20,000 bases of DNA. Origin: an uncultured virus (IMG/VR IMGVR_UViG_650377941_000004). Its lineage: Duplodnaviria > Heunggongvirae > Uroviricota > Caudoviricetes. Both the position numbers and the translations under genes were made by a program. The DNA lies in the IMG/VR virus record IMGVR_UViG_650377941_000004; one strand, given 5' to 3'. Shown piece by piece: positions 1,426 through 19,619 of the stretch. The notes under the pieces are model-generated. The model did not search any database, was not told the DNA's origin, and saw nothing but the letters and a program-made list of their open reading frames with translations. Each line of letters opens with the position of its first letter. Within the stretch, counting starts at the first letter, position 1.

Positions 1426-1432
1426 GTAAAGC

Positions 1433-1481: not shown

Positions 1482-1585
1482 GCGCAAAGATTACAAAATA
1501 ATTACAGATTATGCGGTGCGCCACAAACGGGCCGAAAATTGGTGTTCAACCAGTGAAAAGTAGCCGGAAGCCGCATAAAGGGAAT

Positions 1586-1635
1586 AGTTCGCTTGTTGAT
1601 GTGCAAGGTGGACCAAACAAAAATAATCCGAACTT
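1586..1635. other. Attachment-site junction: prophage right end / island left end
   Basis: AGTTCG(1586-91)-N17-TGGACCA(1609-15) has identical spacing to 19527-19556; AATCCGAACTT (1625-35) is the exact reverse complement of 19526-19536. Confidence 0.8.
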
Positions 1636-1671
1636 GTTTCCGATAGGAGACGGGTTCGGATTATTTGTTTT
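1621..1671 (+). terminator. Hairpin at island left end (terminator-like)
   Basis: 13-bp inverted repeat AAATAATCCGAAC (1621-33) / GTTCGGATTATTT (1654-66) followed by GTTTT. Confidence 0.5.
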
Positions 1672-1746
1672 CTTCGGAAAGTTCAATGCAGGTGTCCGTG
1701 GAAGATGAAAATTAAGGATAATGAACTATTAATCGCAAATAATCTG

Positions 1747-1755
1747 TGCTATAAT
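1747..1755 (+). promoter_or_regulatory. Extended -10 promoter for peptidase-DUF4411 operon
   Basis: TGcTATAAT followed by GGGAGG RBS and ATG 1775. Confidence 0.65.
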
Positions 1756-1774
1756 ACTAAAGGGAGGTGTCATA

Positions 1775-2947
1775 ATGCAGATTAACGTGAAGTTGTCTCC
1801 AGATGTGCTAGACTGGGTTATGGCACATATTCAACAAGAAAATGTTCCGCGGGATGTTGTAAAGTATTTAACAATATGGAAAAGTGGTGAAAAATTGCCC
1901 ACTTTTAATCAGATCGAAAAAGTTAGTAAAGCATCTGGAATCCCATTTGGGTATTTTTTCCTCCAAGAACCTCCCAAAGAAGAATTTCCGTTATTAGAGT
2001 ACAGAACCATAGATAGCACATCGGCAATGAATCCGAGCAGAAATATTATTGATGTTATGCATGATATGGAACAAGTTCAGGATTGGGCTAGAAATCATGC
2101 TATAGAGGAAGAACAGCAGGCTCCAGAATTTATTGGAAGCCAAAAAAACAATGTGGATACTGAAGACTTTGCCGAATATGTCCGAACAGTTTTAGAGTTA
2201 GAAATTAAATGGTATGAAAACAGCAAATCGGCTGTAGAGTCTTTTAAAACACTGAGAGATAAAATTAGTCAAGCAGGCGTTATTGTTATGATGAGTGGTA
2301 TTGTTGGAAATAATACGCATCGACCGCTCGACATAAATGAATTTCGTGCTTTTGCGATGGTAGATGATCTTGTACCATTAATTTTTATCAATTCAAACGA
2401 TTCGGTTAGCGGGAAACTATTTTCTTTGCTACACGAATTTGCTCATATATGTATAGGAAATAATAGTTTATACAATGACAGATATAGCTCTGGAACAAGG
2501 GTTAGTAAGGCGGAAAGTGTATCTAATGCAGTGGCTGCGGAAATTTTAGTTCCACAGGTCATGTTTGAGAAAAAGTGGAAAGAAATCGATAAATTTGATG
2601 ATCCAATTAAAACGATTGATGCGCTTACAAAGTATTTTAGCTGTGGGACGACAGTTATAGCAAGGAAAGCATTAGATAACGGATATATTGATTATTCTGT
2701 ATATAGGAAGCTGTCACAAATTGCGGTTAATCGTTACAATGAAAAACGAAAAAAGGAAAAAGAGCAAGGCGGTGGCGGAGACTATTATAGAACTGCGGCA
2801 AGCCGAATTGATACACGGTTTTTCAAGAGCTTGGTCTCAAGCGTTCACGAAGGAAAAACTTTATACACGGACGCTTTTAGACTTACTAATACCAATAGAT
2901 CTACCTTTGAAAATTTGGTTAACAAAATGGGGGGTGGGTCGAAGTGA
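1775..2947 (+). CDS. HTH + ImmA/IrrE (M78) Zn-metallopeptidase; putative antitoxin
   Basis: XRE-like N-terminus (WKSGEKLPTFNQIEKVSK), HExxH motif LLHEFAH, E..SNAVAAEILVP. Confidence 0.9.
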   Translation: MQINVKLSPDVLDWVMAHIQQENVPRDVVKYLTIWKSGEKLPTFNQIEKVSKASGIPFGYFFLQEPPKEEFPLLEYRTIDSTSAMNPSRNIIDVMHDMEQVQDWARNHAIEEEQQAPEFIGSQKNNVDTEDFAEYVRTVLELEIKWYENSKSAVESFKTLRDKISQAGVIVMMSGIVGNNTHRPLDINEFRAFAMVDDLVPLIFINSNDSVSGKLFSLLHEFAHICIGNNSLYNDRYSSGTRVSKAESVSNAVAAEILVPQVMFEKKWKEIDKFDDPIKTIDALTKYFSCGTTVIARKALDNGYIDYSVYRKLSQIAVNRYNEKRKKEKEQGGGGDYYRTAASRIDTRFFKSLVSSVHEGKTLYTDAFRLTNTNRSTFENLVNKMGGGSK

Positions 2948-3459
2948 ATCAAGAAGTTTTTCTAATAGATACAAATGCTTTGCTGACACCGCATCTTATG
3001 TATTATCCGTTTGACCTCGCACCTAGCTTTTGGGAACAGCTAGAAGAAAAACTTAAAGATGGTTCAGTTGTTCTCTTAGATATGGTGAAAAATGAAATAA
3101 CAGAGGGTCATGATGAACTTTCAAATTGGATGAAGTCATTACAGGGGATAAACATCATTGACCATAGAACTCCCGAAATCATAGAAAAATATAGTAGAGT
3201 TTTAGGTGCAGTTCAAAGCAATACATGCTATAAGCAAAGTGCGCTTGCAGAGTGGTCAAGAGAAAGTGTTGCAGATCCATGGCTAATTGCAACTGCGGCA
3301 GTAAGAAAATTAACAATAGTAACATTTGAAAAAAAGAATGGTGGTCTGTCACCCAAAAATCCGAGTAAAAATGCTAAAATACCAGATGTGGCGATTGAGT
3401 TTGGAGTAAGCGTTTGTGATCTATATTATATGATGAGAAGTTTATCATTTCGTCTTTAA
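2944..3459 (+). CDS. DUF4411-family PIN-like nuclease; putative toxin
   Basis: FLIDTNAL, ADPWLIATA, IVTFE, KIPDV motifs; GTGA overlap with upstream stop. Confidence 0.85.
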   Translation: MNQEVFLIDTNALLTPHLMYYPFDLAPSFWEQLEEKLKDGSVVLLDMVKNEITEGHDELSNWMKSLQGINIIDHRTPEIIEKYSRVLGAVQSNTCYKQSALAEWSRESVADPWLIATAAVRKLTIVTFEKKNGGLSPKNPSKNAKIPDVAIEFGVSVCDLYYMMRSLSFRL

Positions 3460-3465
3460 TAGAAC

Positions 3466-3753
3466 CTAAATTGCATTATGTGATATAACAAAAACAGGGT
3501 GCGCCCGCCCGGACGCACCCTGCCAAAAGCCACAGACAATAACGATATGTACAGCAGGAAGTTCCCCAACGGGAACTTCCTGTTTTTCTTTTCCTGCAAG
3601 ATGAGCCTGTTCTGTCTGCCATGCGGCAAACTCCCTCTGGCCTTCCTCGCTGTTCCAGCAGGCAAGGATGGCCGGGTAGAATGCCCGCGCCAGACGGTCA
3701 ATGACTTCATCGGGATAAGGGGAAGTATTTGTGGACTTTTTCTTTTTGTTCAA
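3466..3753 (-). CDS. Small hypothetical element backbone protein
   Basis: TTG start at 3753 after AAAGGAG RBS; core IDRLARAFYPAI...SEEGQREFAAW resembles small proteins I recall at ends of clostridial IMEs. Confidence 0.6.
   Translation of the reverse strand: MNKKKKSTNTSPYPDEVIDRLARAFYPAILACWNSEEGQREFAAWQTEQAHLAGKEKQEVPVGELPAVHIVIVCGFWQGASGRAHPVFVISHNAI
3555..3592 (+). terminator. Intrinsic terminator of peptidase-DUF4411 operon
   Basis: Perfect 12-bp stem CAGGAAGTTCCC-caac-GGGAACTTCCTG followed by TTTTTCTTTT. Confidence 0.75.
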
Positions 3754-3897
3754 ACGCACACTCCTTTGACTGTCCCACCGTGGCAAAGCCGGGCAAGAAA
3801 ATCAAAGTTCCAATTTCATGTCAGGCGCAAGGGCGCGGATGCTTTCCGCCCTGTACTTGCGGCTGGTGGCTCATTGATGGCTTACAAGTGCCTGCCG

Positions 3898-4833
3898 TTA
3901 TGCCGTTTTAGAGGATTCACTGCTGGATTCTGCAAGAACTTCGTCCAGCGTTTTCAAAAATTCAAGATGAGGTTTCAAGGCAAAGCGAAGAACTTTGACC
4001 TGTTCCGGATGCGTAAGAAGTTTCGGGTTCAAGTCGAACGTAACCTCCCAACTCTTTCGCATGAGAGATTCAGCATTGTGGAGCCGGTAGTACAGTTCGA
4101 GAAACTTTTGGGGAACATCATAGTTTTCATCAATGGTGTTGCTGGCGGCTTTCTCTGCCTGCTTCACCGTTACCTTGTTAGGCTTGACCTTCTTCGGCTT
4201 CGGCACATAATTCTTGATTTCCTCAAAAATTTCAGCCTGTTCTTCGGGCTTGGCCTTGCCGAGATTTTCGAGAAGATAATCGGGAATGTGCAGTTCCTCG
4301 CGGAAGAACCGATCACGGAAACCGGGAGACAATTCATCCGCAACGTCAACACCGTGCGCATAGTATTCTGCACGGCGGACAGAACTTGCACTGCTGTGAT
4401 TTTCCTGTGCGATGCGCTCACAGGTTTTCATAGGCTTCTGGTTGTGTTCAGACTGAACACTGCCAGATTTCTTTACAGTATGCTGATTGCCGCGAAATGT
4501 TTCGGTACGCTTTTCAGAGGAATACTGCTTGCCCATCAGAAACTTCTTTTGCTCCGGGGTTAAATTGCGCCGCCCCAACTGGTTTTTGCAAATCCAAGCG
4601 AGAACTTCTTCCCGGCTTTCAAAGGGGAGCGGCATGGTGGAGAAATAAATCTCAGGATGCTTCTGGAGAATGGCATAACGGTTGTGTCCATCAACAAGGG
4701 TATTGTTCCAGACAATCAAAGGAGAGAGCAGCTTGCCCTCTTTGAGGATGTTTTCTTCAAGCTGCTTAAATTCATCATCGGTCAGAGGAGGAATCTGGGA
4801 CTGGAACTCCGGGTCGATTTTCAGATTGATCAT
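3898..4833 (-). CDS. ParB/Srx-like N-terminal domain protein
   Basis: IDPEF...PPLTDDEFKQLEENIL..G..PLIVW...VDGHNR and NQLGRRNLT motifs; ATG 4833 after AAAGGAG. Confidence 0.8.
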   Translation of the reverse strand: MINLKIDPEFQSQIPPLTDDEFKQLEENILKEGKLLSPLIVWNNTLVDGHNRYAILQKHPEIYFSTMPLPFESREEVLAWICKNQLGRRNLTPEQKKFLMGKQYSSEKRTETFRGNQHTVKKSGSVQSEHNQKPMKTCERIAQENHSSASSVRRAEYYAHGVDVADELSPGFRDRFFREELHIPDYLLENLGKAKPEEQAEIFEEIKNYVPKPKKVKPNKVTVKQAEKAASNTIDENYDVPQKFLELYYRLHNAESLMRKSWEVTFDLNPKLLTHPEQVKVLRFALKPHLEFLKTLDEVLAESSSESSKTA

Positions 4834-4845
4834 ACGCACACTCCT

Positions 4846-6492
4846 TTATCTCTCCTGCTGCGTCTGTTCTTCCTCCCGGAAAAAGGACGCAACATTCTGC
4901 TTTGCGGTTTTCAGTTTGAGCAGTTCTTCCTTAGCTTCCTTGTACTGCTCGTAGAACTTTGCCTTTTCGGATGCCAGCTGCGCATACTCGGCTTCCAGCT
5001 TTTTCGGGCTGGGCAGCTTGGTGAGGTTGTTTGCCTTGAAATAGGCTGCTGCCGCCCGGTACGCTGTCAGCTCTGCACGATGCTGTTCCTCAAAGACTGC
5101 GGGGCGCTTGGCGGTCTTTAACTGCTGGGCAACATTCTTGGTGCTGGTGTAGGCTGCGATATGATAGCGCAGCTCATTGTTGGTCTTCATGCGACCTTCG
5201 AGGTCTTTCACCACCGCCAGCGAGTCGTGATACTTGGCTTCCAGTTTGGCGATGCGCTGGTTCAAGGTGTCCTCGTCGGTCAAGCCCTTTTCCTGCAGAA
5301 GCNNNNNNNNNNNNNNNNNNNNNNNNNNNNNNNNNNNNNNNNNNNNNNNNNNNNNNNNNNNNNNNNNNNNNNNNNNNNNNNNNNNNNNNNNNNNNNNNNN
5401 NNNNNNNNNNNNNNNNNNNNNNNNNNNNNNNNNNNNNNNNNNNNNNNNNNNNNNNNNNNNNNNNNNNNNNNNNNNNNNNNNNNNNNNNNNNNNNNNNNNN
5501 NNNNNNNNNNNNNNNNNNNNNNNNNNNNNNNNNNNNNNNNNNNNNNNNNNNNNNNNNNNNNNNNNNNNNNNNNNNNNNNNNNNNNNNCGATGCGCTGGTT
5601 CAAGGTGTCCTCGTCGGTCAAGCCCTTTTCCTGCAGAAGCTTCACGGTCTGTGCCATAATTTTGAGATTGTGTTTCGTGAGCCAACGCTTATAGCCGATG
5701 CCCTTGTCCTCGATCATCCTCGACTGGATGTCGATCAGTTTCCCGATGGCATCCTGCTTGAACTGCACCTTAGGTTTGCGTTCGGCGTTTGCCTGCAACG
5801 TGGCAAGCACTGCCGCCTTATCGAACTTGTCACTGAGATGTTTCGCTCGTATGAACTTTGTTCTTCCAGCAGGTAGATAACTTAGGCACCCACGACTTTC
5901 CTTGCCGGCAATTCCGTACTGCTGCAAGAGCCTGTCGGAAAAATCTTCAAAGCTGGTGGCACGGTACAATACAGACGAAATCTGTCTCCGCAAAGTGTCC
6001 TTCACGGTTTCAAACTTCTTCTGCTGGGGCGGCTGTCCAGCTGCGGTGAGGGCTGCGTTTTCGCGGTCAAGTTTCAACTGGCCGCGCCTGTGCGCCCAAT
6101 ACTCAGCTTCGCTCACACGCTCTTTCGAGCCGTTGAGCAGGTCGATCTGGTACAGTCCGGCACCCTCGCACAGCTCCATGACCTCGACACGCAAATGCCG
6201 CATGGTCTGGGCTGTGCTGGAGTGCTTCATGCCCTCTAGCCAGTCACGGGGCTTCTGCATATAGGGCTTGCGCTCCACCTCTCGTGTTCGGATGCTGCCG
6301 ATCACGATGTGGACGTGGATGTTTCCCGGTACTGTTGTGCCCATCCGGGTGAGTGCAGACGATGGCAGGATGAGTGGGGAAGTTGTCCTTGCAGAACTGC
6401 AAGCCAAGGGCTTGCGCCCGCTCCATGGTCAGGCCGTTCTCTACTGCGTCCTTCGGGTCGAAGCTGATGATATAATGGTGGGTCTTCACGTC
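4846..6492 (-). pseudogene. MOBP-type relaxase/mobilisation nuclease, N-terminally deleted and frameshifted
   Basis: Motif II HHYIISFDP (from 6489) and motif III HPDGHN..GNIHVHIV are split by a 1-nt frameshift near 6321-6327; no motif I or mobC upstream; C-terminus ends EEQTQQER. Confidence 0.85.
5303..5587. other. Scaffold gap (N run) flanked by identical 53-bp sequences
   Basis: 5250-5302 equals 5588-5640; collapsing them gives an in-frame relaxase. Confidence 0.9.
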
Positions 6493-6585
6493 CGCAGACT
6501 GTTCGTAAAACAGTATTCAACAAATGACACGGCAACTGGATGTCAGGATTGGTTACTGTTCACTCCGCTAGGCCTAAAAAGCATT

Positions 6586-6630
6586 AAGTCCCATGACCAC
6601 ACCGCCGAGGTGTTGGCCATGGGACTTTTT
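6586..6630. terminator. Long hairpin, possibly bidirectional terminator
   Basis: AAGTCCCATGACCACACC-gccga-GGTGTTGGCCATGGGACTT then TTT; downstream of minus-strand membrane gene. Confidence 0.6.
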
Positions 6631-6752
6631 GTGTCTGGGAGCGGCACACCTCTATCGAGGTGTAACACACTAGACTTTGTTTCAAAGTCGTGTGCCAAAG
6701 GAGATTACGCTCCTTTGAAATTTCCGTCATCATAGAGGAAAGAAACAATCTA

Positions 6753-7208
6753 TTAACTTTCCCATGCAGCAACAATGCTTCTTTCTGGGTTTTGAGGGTC
6801 AATAGTCACCTTTATAGGTGTTCCCTTGCTCACGAGAGGGTTGAACCAAAACCAATGGGACTGTCCATAATAAGTGTCTTTTCCAATCTTGTATTGGTAC
6901 CGAATCACCCAAGGATAAATTACATCTTCATCAGCAAGGTGATAGGTACTCATGTGGAATTTTATGTGAACCCTTTTTACTGCATTAACTTTTCCGGAAA
7001 CAATCTTTCCGTTTTTCAGCAGGTCTGCTTTGCGGATGTCTGTAATCCATGCTACCCCGATAATTGCCATAGCAATAAGCCACGCAGCTATGAGTGCCCC
7101 GATTCCAACTTGCTTATAGGCGATAGAAATCAGAAAAGCAACAAAAATCCCAACAGCACCAAGAATATGGAGCAAATCTTTAGAAAAGAACTTATGGATT
7201 TTTTTCAT
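6753..7208 (-). CDS. Membrane protein, DUF3592-like
   Basis: Two N-terminal TM helices then LLKNG...G.V...YP..IRYQY...G..IKVTIDPQNPERS; own RBS and promoter. Confidence 0.7.
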   Translation of the reverse strand: MKKIHKFFSKDLLHILGAVGIFVAFLISIAYKQVGIGALIAAWLIAMAIIGVAWITDIRKADLLKNGKIVSGKVNAVKRVHIKFHMSTYHLADEDVIYPWVIRYQYKIGKDTYYGQSHWFWFNPLVSKGTPIKVTIDPQNPERSIVAAWES

Positions 7209-7250
7209 GGAAAGACACTTCCTTTCTCGGTAGACAACATTATTTGTTCT

Positions 7251-7279
7251 ATTGTATCATATGCTCTGTGTTTTTTCAA
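7251..7279 (-). promoter_or_regulatory. Sigma-A promoter for membrane protein gene
   Basis: Minus strand TTGAAA-17 nt-TACAAT with TGn extension. Confidence 0.65.
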
Positions 7280-7439
7280 ACCAAGTCAAGTGATTGGTGA
7301 AACGACATGAAATAATTGCATCTCACGACAGGTCACCGAAGATAATTGGATTTTTGCAAAAAAGAGGAGTAGTGTATCGTCGAAGGATGTGTTATACTCA
7401 GTCCATGGAACAATTATGAACTTTATTGTTACTCGGCAG

Positions 7440-7570
7440 GGTTTGGGGCAGGCACGCCCCAACAAGAAGCACTTCGGAAACGCACGAGCGTTGCAGAAGT
7501 GTAGTCCCGGAGGAACACAGAATTTTCAAGAATTGAAAATTTGTGTCCACGGGACGGTTCTTGCCCTCTA
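7440..7570. other. Candidate oriT/mobilisation control region
   Basis: Non-coding; hairpins TTGGGGC/GCCCCAA (7443-62) and AATTTTCAA/TTGAAAATT (7521-41), then TCTTGCCC; upstream of relaxase remnant. Confidence 0.35.
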
Positions 7571-8081
7571 CCGCTGCGCTCAAAACGCATTTTCAACAAA
7601 TGTTTCCGAATTTTTAAGGCGCAAAAATAAGTAGAGGTGGTGCTGCTCATGTAATGGGGTCACCGTTTGCTCCGAACGAAGTTCCTGCCCCTGTTTGTGC
7701 AGCGGCGTTGACGGAAAGTCGGTATCACGTTCGGTCGGCTCATGAAATTTTCAAGGTACAACTCCCGTAAAGAAAAATACCACCCTGCAAGACAGGCGAA
7801 AAATTTTGTCGGGTGAATCGGCGGCAAAATGAATCGGGTGTGTTGCGGGGCGGTAAATCTTTCAGGGATAATCCACGGTGAGGCAGTGTTCAAAATGAAC
7901 ACGACCACATTTTGTGGGTGGCTTCAAACCAATCCACAAAGACGGTGGGATTTACAAGAAAAATACCACTGTATGTGAAATTCGTCAAGAGGGTTTTGGA
8001 AAATTTATTACGGTAAAGTGGCGATAGTAAGACTTATCCGACAAAAAACAAAAGCATATGCAGAGAAATTTTGCGCACAAA

Positions 8082-8110
8082 TTGGAAAATCGAGCTATCT
8101 GTGTTATACT
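8082..8110 (+). promoter_or_regulatory. Promoter of hsd operon
   Basis: TTGGAA-17 nt-TATACT with TGn; GGAG RBS before ATG 8150. Confidence 0.6.
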
Positions 8111-8149
8111 CAAGTCAGAATTTGTTGAGCAAAACGGAGGTACTGAGCT

Positions 8150-10892: not shown

Positions 10893-10912
10893 GCCGCTAA
10901 ATTATCGTTTAT
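10224..10912. repeat. 16-bp perfect inverted repeats flanking TRD2 of hsdS
   Basis: ATAAACGATAATTTAG at 10224-10239; reverse complement CTAAATTATCGTTTAT at 10897-10912. Confidence 0.9.
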
Positions 10913-10932
10913 AAAAGATATGAAGGGATAAT

Positions 10933-12225: not shown

Positions 12226-12236
12226 GGAGAAAAATC

Positions 12237-15200
12237 ATGCTTTCATTTACCGAAGATACCTTTGAACAAGCGGTCATAGAGCTATTTGAAAATATGGGTT
12301 ACACCCACATTTATGCTCCTGATATGAACCGAACAGATTACAGCCGCCCTCTGCCGGACGATGTTTTGCGGGATTGTCTGGTGCGGCTGAATCGCAGCCT
12401 TCCGGCTGTGGCAATTGATGAAGTCATCCTGAAACTGAATGATTTTGATGCAGGAAGCCTATTGCAGAAGAATATTATTTTTATGGACTATCTGCAAAAC
12501 GGTATCACGGTCAAATACGCAGTCAAGGGTGAAGAACGGTCTTCGGTAGTAAAGCTGATTGATTATGCAGATGCAGACAAAAATGATTTCTATGTGGTAA
12601 ACCAGTATACCTTCGTGGAAAATGGAAACAACCGCCGCCCGGATATCACTCTGTTTATCAACGGAATGCCACTGGTCTTGATGGAACTGAAAAGTCCTTC
12701 CAAGGATGAAGTGGGCGCAGAAAACGCCTACAATCAGATTCGGAACTATATGCAGGACATTCCCTCCATGTTCTATTATAACGCCATCTGTGTGATCAGC
12801 GACCTGTCCACCAACAAAGCAGGTACGATTACTTCCGGGCTTGACCGTTTTATGGAATGGAAAACAAAAGACGGTGATTATGAAAACACTGCGTATGCGC
12901 AGTTTGATACCTTCTATGAGGGGATGTTCCAGAAAGCACGGTTGCTGGATATTCTGAAAAATTTCATCCTGTTTTCCGGTGATGGGCAGAAGCCGATTAA
13001 AATTTTGGCTGGGTACCACCAGTATTTCGCTGTACGAAAAGCCATCGAAAAGGCCAAAATTGCCACCAAAACAGACGGCAAGGGTGGTGTGTTCTGGCAT
13101 ACGCAGGGCAGCGGAAAATCTCTGTCGATGGTATTCTATGCCCATTTGCTGCAAGAAGCTTTGGATAGCCCCACCATCGTTGTGATGACGGACCGCATTG
13201 ACCTTGACGATCAGCTCTACACGCAGTTCGCCAGGTGCGCGCCGTTTTTGCGCCAGACACCTGTACAGGCAACCAGCAAGGAAAATCTAAGCAAGCTGCT
13301 GGATGGTCGAAAAGCAAACGGCATTATCTTCACCACGATGTTCAAGTTTGAGCGTGGCGAGAAGCCACTGTCCGAACGTAGAAATATTGTGGTAATGGCG
13401 GATGAAGCCCACCGTGGACAGTATGGTTTTGATGAAAAAATTGTCATCAAAGAAAATGAACGGGGTGAAAAAGAAGCACATACGGTCATTGGCAATGCCC
13501 GTATCATTCATGATGCCCTGCCGAATGCAACCTACATAGGCTTTACGGGAACGCCGATTTCGGCAAAAGATAGAAATACGCGTGAAGTTTTTGGTGATTA
13601 TATCGATGTTTATGATATGACACAGGCTGTGGAGGATGGCGCAACGCGTCCGGTTTACTACGAGAGTCGTGTTATCAAACTCCACCTCGACCAGAATACA
13701 CTGGCCTTGATTGATGCGACCTACGACGCACTGGAACAGCAATCGGACGCTGCAACGATTGAAAAAAGCAAAAAGATGCTGGGGCAGATGGAGAGTGTGT
13801 TGGGGGCAGATTCTACCATTCAATCCCTGTGCGAAGATATTGTCGACCACTACGAAAAGTACCGCGCCAATCTCCTGACAGGTAAGGCAATGATCGTAGC
13901 GTATTCGCGCCCGATTGCGATGAAGATTTATCGAAAACTTCTGGAGCTGCGCCCGACATGGAACGAAAAAATCGGCGTAGTTATGACTGGTGGCAACAAT
14001 GACCCGGAGGATTGGAAAGAAATCATCGGCACAAAATCTCACAAAGAAGAACTTGCCCGGAAATTCAAAGACAACGATGACCCGATGAAGATTGCCATTG
14101 TTGTGGATATGTGGCTGACAGGTTTTGATGTGCCTTCACTGGCTACGATGTATGTTTACAAGCCAATGCACGGATACAATCTGATGCAGGCCATCGCGCG
14201 TGTCAACCGCGTGTTTAAGGACAAAGAGGGCGGCTTGATTGTAGATTACGTTGGCATTGCATCTGCCCTCAAAGCCGCTATGAAAGAGTACACCAAGCGT
14301 GACCAGTCCCGATATGGTGATATGGACATTGCCAAAGTTGCATATCCGAAGTTTCAGGAAAAACTTCAGGTGTGTAAAGATTTGTTGCACGGCTTTGATT
14401 TTAGCGGATTTATTGGAGGTTCTCCGTTAATGATGGCAAAGCTGGTCACTGGCGGCGTAAACTTTGTTCTGGACGCAAAAGCACCCAAGCGCAAAGATCT
14501 GTTCCTGCGAGAAGCTCTGTTGCTGAAACAGTCGCATTCGCTGTGTTCCAGCATGACCACGGAGCAGGAGCGACATGAAGCGGCCTATATGGAAGCAGTC
14601 CGTTCTACGGTGGTGAAGATCACCTATGGTGGGAGTGGCGGCAAGACACTTTCTTTGAAAGAAATCAATGCTCAAATCAATGAGTTGCTAAAGGCGAGTA
14701 TCCAGAGCCAAGGCGTTATCAGCTTGTTTGACAGCAAGCAGGCGGATGAAAATATCAGCCTGTTTGACCCGGCGGTGTTGGATGAAATTTCAAAAATGAA
14801 GGAAAAGAACATTGCCGTAGAAATTTTGAAAAAACTTATGGCAGAGCAAGTTTCACTGTATAAACGGACAAATGTTGTGCAGTCTCAGAAGTTTTCAGAA
14901 AAGATTACACAGTTGATGAACTCTTACTACAATGGCTTGATTACAAACGAGGAGGTCATCAAGGAACTTCTGAAAACGGCACAGGAGATTACAGAACAGT
15001 ATAACAACGGTAAAAAGCTGGGCTTGACGCAGGAAGAACTGGCTTTTTACGATGCTTTGACAAAGCCGGAAAACATCAAGGATTTCTACCAAAATAATGA
15101 ATTGATTGACTTGACCAGAGAACTTACGGAAATGCTGCGCAAAAATCGGACGATAGACTGGCAGAAAAAAGAAACTGCCCGTGCGAGTATGCGTAAGATG

Positions 15201-15308
15201 GTGAAGCACTTGCTGAAAAAATATAAGTATCCACCGGAAGATTATGATACGGCAATCAGCACGGTCATTAGCCAGTGTGAGATGTGGACTGACAACATGG
15301 TAGTATGA
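12237..15308 (+). CDS. hsdR: Type I restriction endonuclease subunit R
   Basis: PD...ELK nuclease motif, HTQGSGKS Walker A, DEAH, FTGTP, QAIARVNR; ATG 12237 after GAGGAG. Confidence 0.97.
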   Translation: MLSFTEDTFEQAVIELFENMGYTHIYAPDMNRTDYSRPLPDDVLRDCLVRLNRSLPAVAIDEVILKLNDFDAGSLLQKNIIFMDYLQNGITVKYAVKGEERSSVVKLIDYADADKNDFYVVNQYTFVENGNNRRPDITLFINGMPLVLMELKSPSKDEVGAENAYNQIRNYMQDIPSMFYYNAICVISDLSTNKAGTITSGLDRFMEWKTKDGDYENTAYAQFDTFYEGMFQKARLLDILKNFILFSGDGQKPIKILAGYHQYFAVRKAIEKAKIATKTDGKGGVFWHTQGSGKSLSMVFYAHLLQEALDSPTIVVMTDRIDLDDQLYTQFARCAPFLRQTPVQATSKENLSKLLDGRKANGIIFTTMFKFERGEKPLSERRNIVVMADEAHRGQYGFDEKIVIKENERGEKEAHTVIGNARIIHDALPNATYIGFTGTPISAKDRNTREVFGDYIDVYDMTQAVEDGATRPVYYESRVIKLHLDQNTLALIDATYDALEQQSDAATIEKSKKMLGQMESVLGADSTIQSLCEDIVDHYEKYRANLLTGKAMIVAYSRPIAMKIYRKLLELRPTWNEKIGVVMTGGNNDPEDWKEIIGTKSHKEELARKFKDNDDPMKIAIVVDMWLTGFDVPSLATMYVYKPMHGYNLMQAIARVNRVFKDKEGGLIVDYVGIASALKAAMKEYTKRDQSRYGDMDIAKVAYPKFQEKLQVCKDLLHGFDFSGFIGGSPLMMAKLVTGGVNFVLDAKAPKRKDLFLREALLLKQSHSLCSSMTTEQERHEAAYMEAVRSTVVKITYGGSGGKTLSLKEINAQINELLKASIQSQGVISLFDSKQADENISLFDPAVLDEISKMKEKNIAVEILKKLMAEQVSLYKRTNVVQSQKFSEKITQLMNSYYNGLITNEEVIKELLKTAQEITEQYNNGKKLGLTQEELAFYDALTKPENIKDFYQNNELIDLTRELTEMLRKNRTIDWQKKETARASMRKMVKHLLKKYKYPPEDYDTAISTVISQCEMWTDNMVV

Positions 15309-15335
15309 ATTGTATGAAATGTCGTTGATTTGTGC

Positions 15336-15364
15336 TTGACAATCGGATCCCTTTTCTGTAAAAT
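15336..15364 (+). promoter_or_regulatory. Near-consensus sigma-A promoter
   Basis: TTGACA-17 nt-TAAAAT. Confidence 0.8.
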
Positions 15365-15407
15365 GATTTTAGAAAATACTATTATTGAAAATAAGAAAGG
15401 CTATTTT

Positions 15408-15937
15408 ATGGGAAAGATGATCTTAGATGACCTCCGCAAGCGTCTGGAACGTCTGGACGAAGACGCAGACCTGATGATCGACAATAACGACCACTATCAG
15501 ATGGTGATCGTAGGCGGCAGTGCGTTCATTCTGCTGGGCAAACTGACCCGTGCCACCCATGACATTGATGCCTTGAGCGTTCCGAAAGAACTGTACGGCT
15601 TGCTCGGTAAGTACGATATCAACACGGATGTGGAAGCCTACATCGACAATTTTCCCTATAACTATCCCGACCGTTTGAAACCGCTGCCCTTCGGTGGCAC
15701 AAAGGTTCAGTTCTACACACCCAGTCTGGAAGATCTGGTGATTGCAAAGCTTTGCTCTTTCCGTGATACCGACAAGGCGGACGTGGAGAGCGAAGCTGTG
15801 AGGAACTCGCTAGACTGGGATTTGCTGGAGCATCTTGCAACAGATGAGGACGAACTGAAAGCCAGCATCTGAATGAGTGGCGGTATCGGGACTTCTACAT
15901 CCGGTATCAGGAGTATGTGGAGAGGTGGAGACCGTGA
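15408..15937 (+). pseudogene. DUF6036/AbiEii-like nucleotidyltransferase with a 3' frameshift (stops at 15872 as assembled)
   Basis: IVGGSA...TRATHDID, EDLVIAKL..RDTD..D motifs; shifted frame continues LNEWRYRDFYIRYQEYVERWRP to TGA 15935-37, overlapping next start. Confidence 0.75.
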
Positions 15938-16473
15938 GGAAGCTGACATTTGAGGGATTTTTGAAGCAGTATGTGACGGAACTTTCCGGTGTTCAGACTG
16001 CCAGCATTCACAAGCTGGCGAACTGCTTACATGAAAATCCACGGCTGAAAGAGCCGCTGTACCTCTATGCACTGGTGTTTGATAAAGTAAATCTGCTGCT
16101 CCGCTATGCAAAAGACCCTGTGTGTCTTGCAGAGTATGAACGACTTTCAAATCGCTATTCGAGGGAGCAGGTACTTGCGCTTTTGCAGAACCAGTCGGCA
16201 GAGCTGTCGGAGGGCTATCTGAAAGTCTGGCGCAGTTATTGCTCCGTCCGGGATGCTGCTCTTGCCGACAATGATACAAAAGAACTGATTCACCGCAGAG
16301 TGGTAGAGATTCAGCAAAAGAAACATCTGACGAATTATCGTATTTATGCAGACCTGAAACTGAATCCCGGCAACGTGAATGCGTGGCTCAAGCACAACGA
16401 TTCCAGCAAAATGAGCCTTGACTGCGCCCGGCAAATTTACAAGTACGCAAAGAGTTATTCGGCTGTCCGTTAA
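15934..16473 (+). CDS. Protein with C-terminal XRE-like HTH; putative partner/antitoxin of the NTase
   Basis: GTG 15934 after GGAGAGG; TNYRIYADLKLNPGNVNAWLK HTH-like segment. Confidence 0.7.
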   Translation: MRKLTFEGFLKQYVTELSGVQTASIHKLANCLHENPRLKEPLYLYALVFDKVNLLLRYAKDPVCLAEYERLSNRYSREQVLALLQNQSAELSEGYLKVWRSYCSVRDAALADNDTKELIHRRVVEIQQKKHLTNYRIYADLKLNPGNVNAWLKHNDSSKMSLDCARQIYKYAKSYSAVR

Positions 16474-18072
16474 AAAGGAAGTGCACTCATGGGAACTACA
16501 AAAGCTCTAATCGTTGGCGTAAGCGAATACTTTATTGATGGAGCGGATAACCTCTTCTTTTATAAAAACGATATTATTGCAATGCAAGATGCCTTTATTT
16601 ACGGCCTAGAAGTTGCGGAAAAAGATATGATAGTTTGCGGATTAACAAACACAGTTACAGCAAACGACTTAATCACAGCATTAAAAGGGATTGAAAGGAT
16701 TGTACAAGATGACGATACTTTACTATTCTATTTTTCAGGACATGGGACAACATTGAGTGAAAAACATTACTTGGTATTAAGTGATAGATTAATATGTACA
16801 CAAGATATAATTTCTTTTTTAGATGCAATTTCTGCACGAAATAAAGTGATCTTTCTCGATTGCTGTTTTGCGGGGAACTTTCAAGTTGATGGGTCTGCTG
16901 TTTTTGATATGGAATCGACAGTACGCGATTTTGCAGGAAAAGGGTATGCAGTTTTTGCTTCTAGTAATGCAAGCCAGGTTTCTCGACTTTACCCAAATAA
17001 ATCGATCAGCTTGTTTACTGATTTTTTATACGATGCAATAACAAGTAAGTGCACAATCCGAAACGGAAAGAAAAATTTGAATGATATACACAAATTGTTG
17101 TTCTTACTTTTAGAAACATGGAACAAAAACAATCCAAATTGCGTGCAATTCCCGATTTATAGAGCTAATATAGGCGGCACTGTTTTTTTTGATGTTAAGG
17201 ATTACAAGCCGTATCTTCCGAAAAAGTTCTTTTATGATGATGAGGATTATTGTATTTGCTCAGTCGAGCCGCTTCATAATGGGATTGCAAAACGTTATGC
17301 AGTTAAAGTGATTCTTAAAAAGCCAGTATCATTCGAGCAAGTGTCCTTGATAAACCTTCAAATTGTTGAAAGGATAAAGTTATTAAACATTTTCAATAGC
17401 AAAGCACAAGAATCGAAGTGGAAAAATAAGCCAGCCAACTTGATTTTTGCTTATTTTGGACTTGACTATTCAGACATAGTATCGGGAAACTATATTTGTG
17501 ACACTACTTGGGCGGATGATACGCAAGATAAAAAATGGTGGTATCGTATAAGAAAAGAATCAGAGGCTGTAATAAATGGAATTTATTTCAATATTCATTC
17601 TTATTATCAATCATTAAAAGAATACACTGCTGAACATACTGCGAATGCAGAAGAAATCATACAAGAAACAAAATCAATTCTGTCAGAAATGATTACATTG
17701 GCCGAATATGTTATCGCACAATACAATGAAGTTCTCAATAACGAGCGAACCGAAGAGGAGTTTGTGAATCTTGTAGCAGATGCCCTATCTAGAATTAATG
17801 AACTGTATTGTAAAGAAGGCGATTTGGACTTTCCCCCGGAAGAGCTCCGAGAGTGGAGCCAACTCTGTTCAAATATTATATCCGGCATACACGATTTTTC
17901 GCTTTTTTATGGAAGTCAACACTTTTTACAGAGAACGGAAATGAACAGAAGGCAATGTATGAATTTATCAATCAAACAATATTATCAGGATCTTGAACGT
18001 CTAAAAGATTATGAAACTCAATAATTATGGACGTGCAATGAAATATTAAGTTTACCCGTTAAAAAGGAAGTG
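16467..18072. repeat. 17-bp direct repeats flanking the caspase gene
   Basis: CCGTTAAAAAGGAAGTG at 16467-16483 and 18056-18072. Confidence 0.85.
16489..18024 (+). CDS. Caspase-family (peptidase C14) protein with uncharacterised C-terminal domain
   Basis: KALIVGVSEY, LFYFSGHG (His), IFLDCC (Cys), SLFT..L. Confidence 0.88.
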   Translation: MGTTKALIVGVSEYFIDGADNLFFYKNDIIAMQDAFIYGLEVAEKDMIVCGLTNTVTANDLITALKGIERIVQDDDTLLFYFSGHGTTLSEKHYLVLSDRLICTQDIISFLDAISARNKVIFLDCCFAGNFQVDGSAVFDMESTVRDFAGKGYAVFASSNASQVSRLYPNKSISLFTDFLYDAITSKCTIRNGKKNLNDIHKLLFLLLETWNKNNPNCVQFPIYRANIGGTVFFDVKDYKPYLPKKFFYDDEDYCICSVEPLHNGIAKRYAVKVILKKPVSFEQVSLINLQIVERIKLLNIFNSKAQESKWKNKPANLIFAYFGLDYSDIVSGNYICDTTWADDTQDKKWWYRIRKESEAVINGIYFNIHSYYQSLKEYTAEHTANAEEIIQETKSILSEMITLAEYVIAQYNEVLNNERTEEEFVNLVADALSRINELYCKEGDLDFPPEELREWSQLCSNIISGIHDFSLFYGSQHFLQRTEMNRRQCMNLSIKQYYQDLERLKDYETQ

Positions 18073-18077
18073 AATCT

Positions 18078-19559
18078 ATGACTGCTGTTATCTATGCTCG
18101 TTACTCCTCCGACAACCAGCGTGAAGAATCTATCGAGGGGCAGATTCGGGAATGCACGGCTTATGCGGAAAAGAACGGCATCACGGTCATCAAGCACTAC
18201 ATTGACCGTGCATTCTCTGCCAAAACGGACAATCGCCCGGAGTTCCAGCAGATGATCAAAGACAGCGGCAAGAAGCTGTTTGATGTTGTTCTCGTCTGGA
18301 AATTTGACCGCTTTGCCCGGAACCGTTTTGATAGTGCAAACTACAAGATGATTCTGAAAAAGAACGGTGTCCATCTGATTTCTGTTATGGAACCCATTGC
18401 CGAGGGCTCACAGGGCATTCTGGTGGAAACGCTGCTGGAAGGCATGGCAGAATACTATTCGGCAGAGCTGTCCGAAAAAGTGATTCGTGGTCAGACCGAG
18501 AACGCCCTGAAGGGTAAGTGCACTGGCGGTACGGGAACCATCGGCTATAAAATCGACGAGGACAAGTTTTATCATCTTGACCCGCTGACCGCTCCGCTGG
18601 TGTTGGAAGCATTTCAGCGGTATGACAACGGCGATAAGATGGTGGAGATCGTAAACTTTCTCAACGACAAGGGTGTCCGCAATATGCTGGGCGGCAAAAT
18701 GACCCACAGCAGCGTGAATACCATGCTGAAGAACCGTCGGTACATTGGCGAACTGTCTTTCCGGGATATCGTTGTGCCGGATGCGATTCCGACTATTGTT
18801 CCGAAAGACCTGTTTGACCGGGTGCAGAAGCGTTTGGATAAGAACAAGCGTGCCCCTGCCTGCGGCAAGGCAGACGAGGAATATCTGCTGACCACCAAGC
18901 TGTTCTGCGGCAAATGCGGTACGCTGATGTTCGGCGAAAGCGGAACCAGTGCTACTGGGCGCACCTACTATTATTATAAATGCGCCAACGTCAAGCGGCG
19001 CAAGGGCTGCAACAAAAAGACCGTGCAGAAGGAATGGCTGGAAGATCTGGTCGTCCAGAAGACCATGAAGCTGATTCAGGACGATGCGGTGATCGACAAG
19101 ATCGTTCAACTGGTTATGGATGTCCAGAATCAGGAGAACACTACGATCCCGCTGCTGGAAAAGCAACTGAGAGAGGTCAACAAAAAGCTGGATAACCTGA
19201 TGAAAGCTATCGAGGACGGCTTGTACACCCGGACAACGAAAGAACGTCTGGAAGCACTGGAGATCCAGAAAGATGAGCTGACTGCAAAAATCGCAGATAA
19301 AAAATTGAAGAAGCCCAGCTTCAATGAGGATTTCATCCGGTTCTGGCTGATGAAATTTAGAAAGTTCGATATTTCGCAGAAAAAGCAGCGGAAAGCGCTG
19401 ATCGAAATTTTTGTCAATGCCATTTTTCTGTACGATGATCGGATGCTGATCACGTTCAACTACAAGGATGGCACCCAAACCGTCCGATTTGAGGACGCTT
19501 TGACGGCTGATGGGGTAGAAGGAAAAAGTTCGGATTTGTCCAGTTCTGCTGGACCATAA
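18078..19559 (+). CDS. Large serine recombinase (resolvase + recombinase + Zn-ribbon)
   Basis: YARYSS catalytic Ser, DRFAR, CGKCG...YYKC...C zinc ribbon, coiled coil. Confidence 0.96.
   Translation: MTAVIYARYSSDNQREESIEGQIRECTAYAEKNGITVIKHYIDRAFSAKTDNRPEFQQMIKDSGKKLFDVVLVWKFDRFARNRFDSANYKMILKKNGVHLISVMEPIAEGSQGILVETLLEGMAEYYSAELSEKVIRGQTENALKGKCTGGTGTIGYKIDEDKFYHLDPLTAPLVLEAFQRYDNGDKMVEIVNFLNDKGVRNMLGGKMTHSSVNTMLKNRRYIGELSFRDIVVPDAIPTIVPKDLFDRVQKRLDKNKRAPACGKADEEYLLTTKLFCGKCGTLMFGESGTSATGRTYYYYKCANVKRRKGCNKKTVQKEWLEDLVVQKTMKLIQDDAVIDKIVQLVMDVQNQENTTIPLLEKQLREVNKKLDNLMKAIEDGLYTRTTKERLEALEIQKDELTAKIADKKLKKPSFNEDFIRFWLMKFRKFDISQKKQRKALIEIFVNAIFLYDDRMLITFNYKDGTQTVRFEDALTADGVEGKSSDLSSSAGP
19526..19556. 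other. attR of island, overlapping last recombinase codons
   Basis: AAGTTCGGATT...TGGACCA immediately followed by the TAA stop. Confidence 0.8.
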
Positions 19560-19600
19560 ATCCAACGATTTCACGTTAGAAATCGTTGGATTTTTTGTTT
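19558..19600 (+). terminator. Intrinsic terminator after attR
   Basis: AAATCCAACGATTTC-acgtta-GAAATCGTTGGATTT then TTTGTTT. Confidence 0.85.
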
Positions 19601-19619
19601 GTGGGCTGACCTCATTTGG

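Follow-up and report, generated by a model that had tools for sequence, protein, structure and literature searches.

The large serine recombinase (LSR) encoded at the right end of the window, the whole 20,000-nucleotide stretch of DNA that was analysed, reads without a stop of its own into an attachment core, and its last 30 codons lie at the opposite end of the element. We consider it probable that this element and its relatives carry attP inside the frame of their own LSR, target the 3′ ends of tRNA genes, exchange the C-terminus of the recombinase upon integration and maintain the exchanged tail by selection. In this model, the P arm would encode the residues just before the crossover, which would fall at the dinucleotide preceding ACCA, while the P′ arm, the following 25–50 codons and the true stop would sit across it. 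The normal target would be a tRNA 3′ end, whose T-loop (GTTCRA) would act as the B-arm motif, 5 bp nearer to the crossover than in attP. Because attP would lie within the LSR frame, integration would cut the gene to leave a short protein ending at the first stop in the host flank (here at once, at TAA), and the excised or joined copy would encode the full protein with its conserved tail (here 30 aa). The tail, we infer, is of consequence only while the element is excised.

Results

Attachment site within the recombinase gene

The recombinase gene, the cores and the arms are arranged in the window as follows.

18078–19559, plus strand: large serine recombinase, integrated (short) form, 493 aa (Resolvase, Recombinase and Zn_ribbon_recom domains, Pfam)
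1616–1708, plus strand: last 30 codons and stop TGA (1706–1708) of the recombinase in the joined form (translation; open and conserved in relatives)
1609–1615, plus strand: left copy of TGGACCA, crossover GG at 1610–1611 deduced from relatives' junctions
19550–19556, plus strand: right copy of TGGACCA, crossover GG at 19551–19552 deduced from relatives' junctions
19526–19536, plus strand: P arm of attP, AAGTTCGGATT, in the last 11 codons of the recombinase (direct reading, integrated relatives)
1625–1635, plus strand: P′ arm of attP, AATCCGAACTT, coding N-P-N (perfect inverted repeat of 19526–19536)
1621–1676, plus strand: 20-bp hairpin with a T-rich tract, terminator-like (folding, terminator analysis)

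The product of 18078–19559 contains the catalytic (PF00239, E 3.4e-33), recombinase (PF07508, E 6.3e-16) and zinc-ribbon (PF13408, E 4.6e-12) domains of a large serine recombinase. The 493-aa frame ends in ...SSDLSSSAGP, with GGA CCA at 19551–19556 and TAA at 19557–19559; this stop belongs to the flanking DNA, and the gene has none of its own before TGGACCA. Direct reading and translation thereby confirmed the original prediction that the att core lies inside the 3′ end of the recombinase gene. The two TGGACCA copies are in the same codon phase, and the left-end frame (1616–1705) translates as NKNNPNLFPIGDGFGLFVFFGKFNAGVRGR, with no plausible start codon of its own in the translation of the left end. 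Joining the ends at TGGACCA was predicted to add a 30-aa C-terminus, and the frame is indeed open as far as the TGA at 1706–1708.

The 11-nt arms AAGTTCGGATT and AATCCGAACTT are perfect inverted repeats located 14 and 13 nt from the GG, in agreement with the rebuilt attP that had been proposed. The P′ arm was among the fixed anchors of the search pattern that returned 235 loci, and it is present in all 235 by construction because the pattern required it. Three junctions (L010, G001b and G003_877k) confine the exchange to the two bases preceding the discriminator A, and the crossover is deduced to be the GG dinucleotide before ACCA. The site so rebuilt resembles a short pseudo-palindromic attP (~40–50 bp) with a central 2-bp crossover. 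The GG corresponds to the final two acceptor-stem bases of a tRNA and the core mimics a tRNA 3′ end (GG-ACCA), which points to the 3′ end of tRNA genes as the normal target. Neither this mimicry nor the targeting of tRNA genes by the family featured in the original prediction. GTTCG starts 23 nt before the crossover in the P arm and 18 nt before it in the tRNA T-loop, a 5-bp shift of the kind given for LSR attB and attP in passages of PMC3783163. This shift of the ZD motif was found for the left half only, and the B′ halves vary among relatives.

In G001, the nearest genome, six sites are homologous to the left end, with the match beginning at 1610–1612, directly after tRNA 3′ ends, and the right flank is homologous from 19551 to an unoccupied tRNA-Pro(GGG) site in the same genome (95% identity over 19551–19666). 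In L332, a metagenome contig of 1,288 nt, the counterpart of window positions 18980–19556 (95.3% identity) runs directly into that of 1609–1683 (97.3%), with 7 nt common to both joined ends. These homology starts, the empty site and the L332 junction agree with the claim that the ends join at TGGACCA. L332 is the sole natural junction of the window's own type and carries only the last ~200 LSR codons; judged from its sequence, it is a tandem or remnant junction rather than a proven circle. No circle junction was seen in one raw-read run, from which the island is absent (zero depth at ~8005–18000), and contigs are incapable of showing rare circular forms.

Left-end hairpin and tRNA targets

The hairpin (1621–1666) has a folding energy of −33.7 kcal/mol and a z-score of −6.07, and none of 200 shuffles was as stable. 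Of the 120 genome loci that contain it, 74 place it 9 nt past the CCA of an intact tRNA gene called in the sequence, and 21 have it behind a partial tRNA. A same-strand family LSR is located 6–32 kb downstream of the hairpin in 6 of 8 cases in G003, 8 of 10 in G002, one in G006 and three in G001. In normal insertions, the hairpin would terminate the transcript of the upstream tRNA. The left-end hairpin thus appears to serve in three ways, as P′ arm, as replacement terminator of the tRNA and as codons; the dual use suggested for it was borne out, with more than one role found (arm, terminator-like, coding). Within the hairpin, constraint on DNA or RNA is inseparable from coding constraint.

It is extremely improbable that TGGACCA is a chance repeat, that the hairpin is a host tRNA terminator and that the element ends elsewhere. 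A 7-bp match is weak by itself, and the hairpin does follow tRNA genes in many genomes; however, the same 70–90 nt are found behind no fewer than 14 tRNA species, spread over several genera, whereas the flanks at the recombinase end contain diverse native terminators. The empty G001 site, the pairing of hairpin and LSR and the exact junction in L332 likewise speak against coincidence. These comparisons refute a chance repeat unless the empty site in G001 is a misassembly.

Read-through across the family

All 17 integrated LSRs lack a stop before the crossover and end 0–110 codons into the flank. The joined-form loci that could be evaluated, 170 in number, all have their stop past the crossover, although IMG/VR contigs may contain prophage flanks and some of these 'joined forms' are therefore perhaps not free attP. 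The tail measures 24 or 25 codons in 72 of the 93 joined-form loci with an upstream open frame of at least 420 codons, CCA being taken as a codon. In two lineages the core is translated in different frames, yet both proteins finish with ...VFVQTKRHxLP. The long tail is not universal, since eight joined-form LSRs in another frame have a stop only 12 nt past the discriminator (a 4-codon tail). Among 125 unique left ends, three have a stop in the spacer, one has a 1-nt deletion and ~10 end 18–24 codons in. On this evidence, the presence of attP within the LSR frame appears to be family-wide, spanning both islands and temperate phages from gut Oscillospiraceae. The spread across the family, phages as well as islands, had gone unrecognised in the original prediction.

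Coding signature of the tail

The coding tests used DNA outside the positions fixed by the search patterns, in groups set by peptide motifs, which may favour intact frames. In three island-type groups, the extra alleles at the first, second and third codon positions numbered 23, 20 and 51; 22, 26 and 57; and 7, 6 and 14, with pN/pS values of about 0.42–0.44 (the higher from a peptide-guided alignment), 0.21 and 0.37, respectively. The other frames of these tails gave values near or above 1 or were closed by stops. Two phage-type groups gave 20, 12 and 30 (pN/pS 0.32) and 9, 4 and 25 (pN/pS 0.17), so that 5 of 7 groups have a tail pN/pS of 0.17–0.44 with an excess of third-position variation. 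The internal indels of the tails (about 32–33) are all multiples of three, and the signature extends past the hairpin and into phage tails that lack a hairpin arm. A coding signal was absent from one phage-type group (n = 7; pN/pS 1.60) and, past the hairpin, was weak in the subfamily to which the window belongs (8, 9 and 13; pN/pS 0.66). Conservation of the left-end frame at the codon level, which the original prediction had named as a test, thus held in relatives and was only weakly visible in the window's own subfamily. Given the read-through in integrated and joined forms, the coding signature and the lack of a plausible start of its own, we conclude from sequence comparison that the long isoform is real and that its tail is under purifying selection.

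Read-through could instead be passive, with the left end kept only as P′ arm and terminator, the frame without a protein role and the long isoform irrelevant, which we regard as quite unlikely. The best-conserved tail codons overlap the P′ arm and the hairpin, AlphaFold does not confidently fold the tail, integrated copies accept arbitrary flank-encoded ends of 0–110 codons, a lineage with a 4-codon tail and a few left ends with early stops exist, and the subfamily of the window gives a weak signal. Against this stand the third-position excess and the pN/pS of 0.17–0.44 beyond the hairpin and in phage tails lacking its arm, the in-frame state of every indel, the absence of any stop upstream of the crossover in all 187 cases, the tight tail length of 24–25 codons and the convergence of two frames on one C-terminal motif.

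Predicted properties of the tail

An AlphaFold model of a relative's recombinase has a mean pLDDT of 79.9 and a long helical insert; the tail, with a pLDDT of 31–41 (AlphaFold2), has no confident fold. This C-terminal segment is hydrophobic, rich in aromatic residues (FGLFVFF) and, by prediction, disordered and placed after the last folded element, outside the coiled coil. Tails in the family end in ..VRGR, ..VKVP, ..CHRP, ..HALP or ..EEVG, and an ssrA-like ..AA end was absent from those inspected.

Selection on the tail, the preferred reading, allows several roles, and the setting of directionality or stability, which the original prediction suggested, is among the candidates. Most likely, the tail tunes the stability or activity of the enzyme during integration or blocks re-excision; through such tuning or blocking, the enzyme itself would register whether the element is integrated or free. 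By a logic like that of integration-dependent immunity in mycobacteriophages, the tail might be an instability signal that makes the free-element enzyme short-lived and confines integration to a period after entry, its loss upon integration changing the half-life; we regard this as less likely than not. Tails rich in aromatic residues can act as protease signals. The hydrophobic, aromatic-rich, predicted disordered C-terminus suits such a signal, and passages of PMC3694055 and PMC4557955 provide a precedent for integration altering the C-terminal tag of a protein; however, the tails have no ssrA-like ..AA end, and a degron of another kind would have to be supposed.

It is doubtful that the tail is a directionality device, with the long isoform only integrating and the short one excising with little or no separate factor. 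The isoform switch tracks the state of the element by construction, the tail is under selection, and the Pfam and PADLOC annotation scans named no directionality factor among the island ORFs. However, separate directionality factors are small and diverse, these were annotation scans only, and the phage relatives may well carry such a factor. The tail is moreover predicted to be disordered and to lie outside the coiled coil to which the model published in PMC3783163 assigns control of directionality, as given in passages of that paper. It also seems unlikely that the tail is a state sensor, with the full-length enzyme of the free element integrating and the truncated one released for excision or silenced; if it were, a separate directionality factor would be partly replaced, and recombinases mined from integrated copies of this gut family would all be C-terminally wrong.

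Cargo of the island

The window contains an integrated defence island of ~18 kb (1610–19552) of a gut bacterium, with the following contents.

1775–2947, plus strand: RmrA/CapP-like M78 peptidase protein (Pfam, PADLOC)
2944–3459, plus strand: DUF4411 protein (Pfam, PADLOC)
3456–7908, mostly minus strand: poorly annotated backbone (relaxase fragment at 6244–6489)
8150–15308, plus strand: type I restriction-modification genes hsdM, hsdS, an inserted FRG-domain gene (PDC-S15) and hsdR (Pfam, PADLOC)
15330–18024, plus strand: DUF6036 nucleotidyltransferase, unassigned ORF and caspase-domain protein (Pfam, PADLOC)

The pair at 1775–3459 looks like a Rosmer-type toxin-antitoxin defence pair. The backbone is probably a decayed mobilisation module. 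Integrative and mobilizable elements (IMEs) combine their own integrase with a relaxase, an oriT or both; in the island the integrase is present, and the relaxase only as a fragment (PF03432, E 1.5e-05). An oriT-like motif of relatives has three one-mismatch matches in the window, against 0.81 expected, and no exact match. Read depth over the backbone is high in many runs.

Flanks of this copy

The flanks of the island differ in origin.

1–1482, plus strand: host chromosomal flank, with a gene end at 1425 and a stem-loop at ~1433–1475 (match to genome G282)
1483–1609, plus strand: 127-bp stretch of obscure origin, ending in a decayed P-type half-site (spacing, partial motif match)
19557–19666, plus strand: native downstream flank of tRNA-Pro(GGG), with its own terminator at ~19560–19600 (95% to the empty G001 site)

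Positions 1–1482 are 83% identical to G282, a genome of the same genus that continues with other DNA. In the adjoining 127 bp, GTTCG at 1587–1591 lies 18 nt before ACCA, a spacing as in family P arms; compared with the family pattern GTTCGGAT-N18-CCA, the half-site has equal spacing and matches at 6 of 8 bases, and its frame reads KGNSSLVDVQGGP against EGKSSDLSSSAGP. The stretch is probably the stump of the recombinase 3′ end of a lost left-hand neighbour, which we infer from these features since it has no BLAST match to any locus in the comparison set. ARAGORN found no tRNA gene anywhere in the window, and this copy, with a host gene and a further 127 bp on its left, does not sit at a tRNA 3′ end. 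Because a decayed P-type half-site is all that the left flank offers, this copy cannot be assumed to excise at attL × attR. The original prediction had passed over this non-tRNA flank.

Discussion

The joint of a circular element can create a new expression state, as in Tn4451 tnpX and Tn916, where it assembles a promoter or is read across. There the joint acts via a promoter, whereas here it would complete a reading frame. In archaeal fusellovirus SSV-type integrases, attP lies within the int gene and integration partitions the gene. Those enzymes are tyrosine recombinases that are split into two large parts and inactivated, whereas here only the last 25–50 codons would be exchanged, and the catalytic and DNA-binding domains of the window's recombinase stay intact. 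The enzyme is like the serine integrases phiC31, Bxb1 and A118/LI in its Resolvase, Recombinase and zinc-ribbon domains, its ~50-bp pseudo-palindromic attP and its putative 2-bp crossover; it differs in that attP would lie in its own ORF, that integration would swap its C-terminus and that the target would be a tRNA 3′ end with the T-loop as B-arm motif. In the literature searched, we found no paper describing an own-ORF attP or tRNA 3′-end targeting for serine integrases, and the main text of PMC10083194 does not contain the word 'tRNA'.

In mycobacteriophage BPs and its relatives, attP lies in the 3′ end of a gene whose free and integrated forms have different C-termini, according to passages of PMC3694055 and PMC4557955. 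As in that integration-dependent immunity, integration here changes the C-terminus of the encoded product, as read in all 17 integrated copies and all 170 joined forms, and such a switch would report the state of the element. In BPs, however, as those passages have it, the split gene encodes the repressor, the integrase is of the tyrosine type and the tag is ssrA-like, whereas here the serine recombinase itself is split, with no ssrA-like end. Faecalibacterium IMEs and other mobile elements at tRNA 3′ ends, often in tandem with remnants and with defence cargo, are described in passages of PMC12084326, among them IME_FduA2165_tRNApro_2, which carries type I restriction-modification plus Rosmer, as in the window; neither an att site within the reading frame of the recombinase nor a tail at the opposite end is discussed in those passages.

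Serine integrases are valued as simple, one-way enzymes, and what is known of how natural elements control the reverse reaction comes from a small number of directionality factors. A C-terminus that changes with the state of the element would be a directly testable alternative control point. Enzymes mined from integrated copies would lack their true 25–50 terminal residues or bear flank-encoded junk, and the true recombinase gene would be readable only by joining the ends of the element. The family would also represent serine recombinases whose target is the T-loop and acceptor end common to all tRNAs, which would account for the spread of close relatives over at least 14 tRNA species and for their tandem stacking in Faecalibacterium genomes.

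Attachment core within the recombinase gene

The large serine recombinase (LSR) of the window has Resolvase, Recombinase and Zn_ribbon_recom domains, and the 3′ end of its gene shares a TGGACCA core with the left end of the defence island. The features at the two ends are as follows.

1609–1615, second copy of TGGACCA, in a codon phase identical to that of the copy at the LSR 3′ end
1616–1705, open continuation of the LSR frame past the left core (the tail, NKNNPNLFPIGDGFGLFVFFGKFNAGVRGR), closed by TGA at 1706–1708
1621–1666, left-end hairpin of 20 bp with a T-rich tract behind it
1625–1635, arm AATCCGAACTT, 13 nt from the central GG
18078–19559, plus strand, LSR ORF of 493 aa with the C-terminus ...SSDLSSSAGP
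19526–19536, arm AAGTTCGGATT, a perfect inverted repeat of AATCCGAACTT, 14 nt from the central GG
19551–19556, GGA CCA, the last two LSR codons, followed by TAA at 19557–19559

The hairpin has an RNA free energy of −33.7 kcal/mol (z = −6.07), which was equalled by 0 of 200 shuffles, and together with its T-tract it received a terminator-like score on the plus strand. The original prediction had placed an att core inside the LSR 3′ end, with an in-frame left-end extension, inverted arms and a hairpin; direct reading, translation and folding found all of these details accurate.

Element ends and relatives

The sequence at 1610–1697 occurs in six copies in the nearest genome (G001), with homology starting at 1610–1612 every time. 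Copies in G001 lie directly behind the 3′ ends (...ACCA) of tRNA-Pro GGG, tRNA-Pro UGG, tRNA-Tyr and tRNA-Leu, and the remaining ones (L003 and L007) lie behind a tRNA 3′ fragment left uncalled by ARAGORN. The right flank of the island (19551–19666) shows 95% identity to the DNA directly 3′ of an unoccupied tRNA-Pro(GGG) in G001; this locus is an empty site. In the same genome, three hairpins are paired with a same-strand LSR of the family 6–32 kb downstream. Among the other relatives, such pairing was found for 6 of 8 hairpins in G003, for 8 of 10 in G002, where two of the paired LSRs are broken, and once in G006, in an element of 5.9 kb.

Scanning a single genome for each species gave at least 120 hairpin copies, with hosts among the matches listed that include Faecalibacterium, Gemmiger, Oscillibacter, Lawsonibacter, Pseudoflavonifractor, Ruthenibacterium and others. 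Of these copies (at least 120), 74 are located 8–11 nt past a called tRNA, 21 behind a partial tRNA, 2 at P-type spacing and 17 in another upstream context, while 6 have too little upstream DNA. The preceding tRNAs represent 14 anticodon species of Tyr, Leu, Pro, Arg, Lys, Ala, Met and Val among the matches listed. The flanks at the LSR end are diverse native terminators, whereas the left-end hairpin is one constant sequence, indicating that the hairpin is part of the element and not of the host.

Approximately 175 nt of conserved non-tRNA DNA lie ahead of the hairpin at L072, L078, L184, L042, L111, L123 and L074, and at the first three of these loci a tRNA precedes that DNA. A 5S rRNA end was considered for this stretch and rejected, as Rfam gave only tRNAs ~175 nt upstream (six loci), which points to small remnants between tRNA and hairpin; the stretch probably represents a remnant element of minimal size, lodged between the tRNA and the island.

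Crossover and tRNA target

The 3′ ends of LSR subfamilies mimic the terminus of their own tRNA, reading GGACCA for Pro, GCACCA for Leu, Arg and Lys, and CCACCA for Tyr. Three native flanks that diverge early (L010, ...GCTGG/GACTGG; G001b, ...GCTCGA/TATGAC; G003_877k, ...CTGCAC/TCTTG) place the exchange no later than the dinucleotide ahead of the discriminator A (the first base of ACCA), and the base before that dinucleotide is T in attP versus C in the tRNA. These junctions and the T/C difference bound the exchange, so that the exchanged dinucleotide is GG (1610–1611 and 19551–19552). The T-loop motif GTTCRA of the tRNA starts 18 nt before the crossover and GTTCG of the P arm, the attP half-site left of the core, 23 nt before it; the same 5-bp shift of the zinc-ribbon-domain motif between attB and attP appears in the LI integrase model in Figure 6 of PMC3783163. 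Targeting of the T-loop and acceptor end thus offers a simple reason for the spread of close relatives across many tRNA genes. A candidate B′ half-site in the right flank (TAAATCCAAC), which resembles the P′ arm, is offset by 7–8 bp and missing from other flanks, and it was treated as a chance match.

Read-through of the crossover

No stop codon precedes the crossover in the integrated LSR ORFs of 17/17 paired elements. The stop is supplied by host DNA 0–110 codons further on, the value being 0 at the tRNA-Pro(GGG) site, as in the window. In several integrated copies (G001a (L009), G001c, G002_544k and others) the native tRNA terminator is reached before the stop that the flank supplies, and we speculate that the transcript of an integrated LSR gene may often end without a stop codon.

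Joined forms, in which the element ends meet, were searched with a pattern in which the two arms and CCA are the sole fixed elements (GTTCGGAT-N18-CCA-N9-AATCCGAAC). It matched at least 114 IMG/VR loci and at least 121 metagenome loci (235 orientable among the matches listed); these are not always free phages or circles, since the flanks of a prophage may be part of an IMG/VR entry and a tandem or remnant origin is clear for several junctions. Among the matches listed, an LSR match ends at the site in 174 loci, 4 of which run off the locus end, and a stop follows the crossover in 170/170 evaluable loci. The core is traversed in the frame of the window in 145 of these 170 listed loci (stop 76–79 nt past the discriminator in 105), in frame +1 in 24 (stop at 75 nt in 13 and at 12 nt in 8) and in frame +2 in 1 (stop at 29 nt). 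The tail measures 24 or 25 codons in 72 of the 93 listed loci with an upstream open frame of at least 420 codons, counted with CCA as a codon. The 13 frame +1 loci with the stop at 75 nt share the C-terminus ...VFVQTKRHxLP with one frame-0 group. A metagenome contig (L332) carries the exact joint predicted for the element type of the window, with only the last ~200 codons of the LSR.

A long tail is not a feature of every member, as the eight loci with a stop at 12 nt demonstrate. In this lineage (L188, L239, L290, L366, L369, L375, L287 and L227; LSR ~43% identical), the P arm is read in another frame and TAA overlaps the P′ arm, with the usual frame open alongside for ~32 codons upstream and 22–26 downstream. 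The lineage could have lost the tail or could carry a frameshifting site.

Coding signal in the tail

The tail lacks a plausible start, and normal insertion places it behind a tRNA gene; its translation is therefore possible only as the terminal part of an ORF that begins upstream. In 125 unique island-type left ends, the frame is extended by 28–52 codons (for example ...FFGKQNEGSFPTAVCPKPYQKNRITKVTTVKVP, ...FFDRYETTYFRNGVKRKPTSKPRGPRKKRAAI and ...FFGYNNEGSRGRRKTPIPCHRP); counter-cases comprise a stop in the spacer in 3 and a 1-nt deletion in 1, and ~10 stop 18–24 codons in. Codon tests were applied to the stretch behind the hairpin, which the search pattern leaves unconstrained, in groups defined by peptide motifs, a grouping that could be biased towards intact frames.

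Codon-level variation of the tail (values in brackets, peptide-guided alignment)
Group; type; n; extra alleles at codon positions 1, 2, 3; pN/pS
VKVP; island; 29; 23, 20, 51; 0.42 (0.44)
SKPRG; island; 15; 22, 26, 57; 0.21 (0.21)
PCHRP; island; 18; 7, 6, 14; 0.37 (0.37)
Window's own subfamily; island; 14; 8, 9, 13; 0.66, signal weak
FFVKH; phage; 33; 20, 12, 30; 0.32
TITV; phage; 16; 9, 4, 25; 0.17
IPIGDGFGFLLF; phage; 7; 5, 7, 4; 1.60, no signal

In VKVP, SKPRG and PCHRP, the other frames gave pN/pS values of ~0.9–2.7, save the antisense frame that shares third positions, which is closed by stops in 29/29, 8/15 and 16/18 sequences, respectively. Internal gap runs in DNA-only alignments of these three groups were of length 3, 6, 9 or 15 in 32/32 cases, and the FFVKH alignment has a single gap run, of length 9. 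The 3′ hairpin arm reaches at least 8/9 matches in only 68/159 unique joined forms among the matches listed, and the coding of the tail is thus conserved where the hairpin is not. The predicted codon-level conservation of the left-end frame was borne out in VKVP, SKPRG, PCHRP, FFVKH and TITV, was weak in the subfamily of the window itself and was not seen in the seven-member phage group.

Tail model and candidate roles

A natural full-length relative (L344, 513 aa, 59–60% identical to the LSR of the window) was modelled with AlphaFold2 from a 35-row alignment. The body is confident (mean pLDDT 79.9) and its last strand ends at residue 470. Residues 480–512 have a pLDDT of 31–41, and the model offers nothing to suggest that the tail folds or docks; pLDDT values of this kind do not identify a docking site, nor do they prove disorder.

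The tail cannot be essential for catalysis, because the prophage-encoded enzyme is always tail-less and prophages must nevertheless excise; selection on the tail must act in the free state. We hypothesise that the tail may have a role in directionality or stability, and we would tentatively rank the candidates as follows. A stability or degradation signal and a modulator of integration stand first, although each is unlikely when taken singly. A directionality device appears more doubtful. A tail without function is considered slightly less probable still.

Flanks and history of this copy

ARAGORN found no tRNA in the window. Positions 1–1482 are host chromosome, with 83% identity to a same-genus genome that has other DNA thereafter, and the left flank (1476–1615) gave no BLAST match at E ≤ 0.01 to any of the collected loci. 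Between the host terminator and the island lie 127 bp (1483–1609) with GTTCG near their end at P-type spacing and a frame that gives KGNSSLVDVQGGP, compared with EGKSSDLSSSAGP in the LSR; judged by the motif spacing, this stretch is probably the stump of another LSR 3′ end. The tRNA expected on the left side of the island is missing, and the right flank is DNA from downstream of tRNA-Pro(GGG). The simplest history would be a tandem whose left member was later lost together with the tRNA. The contig of the source run matches 1–3667 without difference, so the left junction is not an artefact of the window. A joint from 19556 to 1609 did not appear in any of four runs, but one of these, the sole raw-read run, lacks the island and the other three consist of contigs, which drop rare forms, so that a circle junction would have escaped all four. 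From 19678 onwards, the right flank matches a region of G001 other than the empty site. Past the stretch derived from downstream of tRNA-Pro, this flank holds a gene fragment: a long antisense ORF opens with a 29-residue match to DUF6551 (19674–19760, minus strand; profile positions 66–94 of 242).

Cargo and backbone

The following were found between the island ends.

Defence cargo, RmrA/CapP-like M78 peptidase with a DUF4411 partner
Defence cargo, type I RM system with an inserted FRG-domain gene (PDC-S15)
Defence cargo, DUF6036 nucleotidyltransferase
Defence cargo, caspase-domain protein
6244–6489, minus strand, relaxase fragment

The relaxase fragment overlaps a 375-aa ORF in another frame (5280–6407, minus strand), and differences of 1 nt at 6322 and 6329 appear in other runs; the region 5280–6489 probably represents a relaxase gene with a frameshift. 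A perfect 53-bp direct repeat is present at 5250–5302 and 5588–5640, and 51 reads of the raw-read run X21 skip 338 bp between its copies, which indicates a deletion variant in a related strain. In three runs, a 48-bp stretch at 7470–7519 is swapped for ~15 other letters (TGTCCCAAAGGGGCA and variants), and this is a small variable cassette of the backbone. Within hsdS (9688–10890), 531–645 bp are skipped or replaced in contigs of run X3, as expected for swapped target-recognition domains of type I RM.

The oriT-like motif, an 81-bp module of relatives with two small GC hairpins, is absent from the window. The module lies in frame (27 codons) within the LSR 3′ end of two G001 elements (L009 and L010) and elsewhere directly behind the left-end hairpin (L003, several left ends and an X2 loose end before window position 1679). 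Its reverse complement resembles strings labelled 'putative oriT' in relaxase-less elements in Supplementary Fig S7 of PMC12084326.

Discussion

By its domains and site anatomy, the LSR of the window is an ordinary LSR; it departs from the norm in having attP within its ORF and in targeting tRNA 3′ ends. SSV-type archaeal tyrosine integrase genes are partitioned upon integration, which is also close to the split LSR. The closest logic is that of mycobacteriophage integration-dependent immunity (PMC3694055 and PMC4557955), in which the repressor gene contains attP and its product loses a degradation tag upon integration. In a large LSR mining study (PMC10083194), tRNA goes unmentioned in the main text, as do att sites inside the LSR ORF in the portion accessible. 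Our literature search, with most subscription journals outside its range, yielded no description of the attP-inside-ORF arrangement for serine integrases. Tandems and remnants, common in the LSR family of the window, are also described for Faecalibacterium in PMC12084326, where the element class appears as IMEs and MGEs integrated at tRNAs, frequently in tandem and carrying defence cargo, and where the entry IME_FduA2165_tRNApro_2 lists type I RM plus Rosmer.

After insertion of the island type, the hairpin and T-tract would terminate the tRNA transcript. In the joined form, the hairpin falls inside the LSR ORF, and translation and termination would compete. The splitting of the LSR gene by its own attachment site is real, family-wide and under selection, unusual both in anatomy and in reach, with the left end of the element in triple use.
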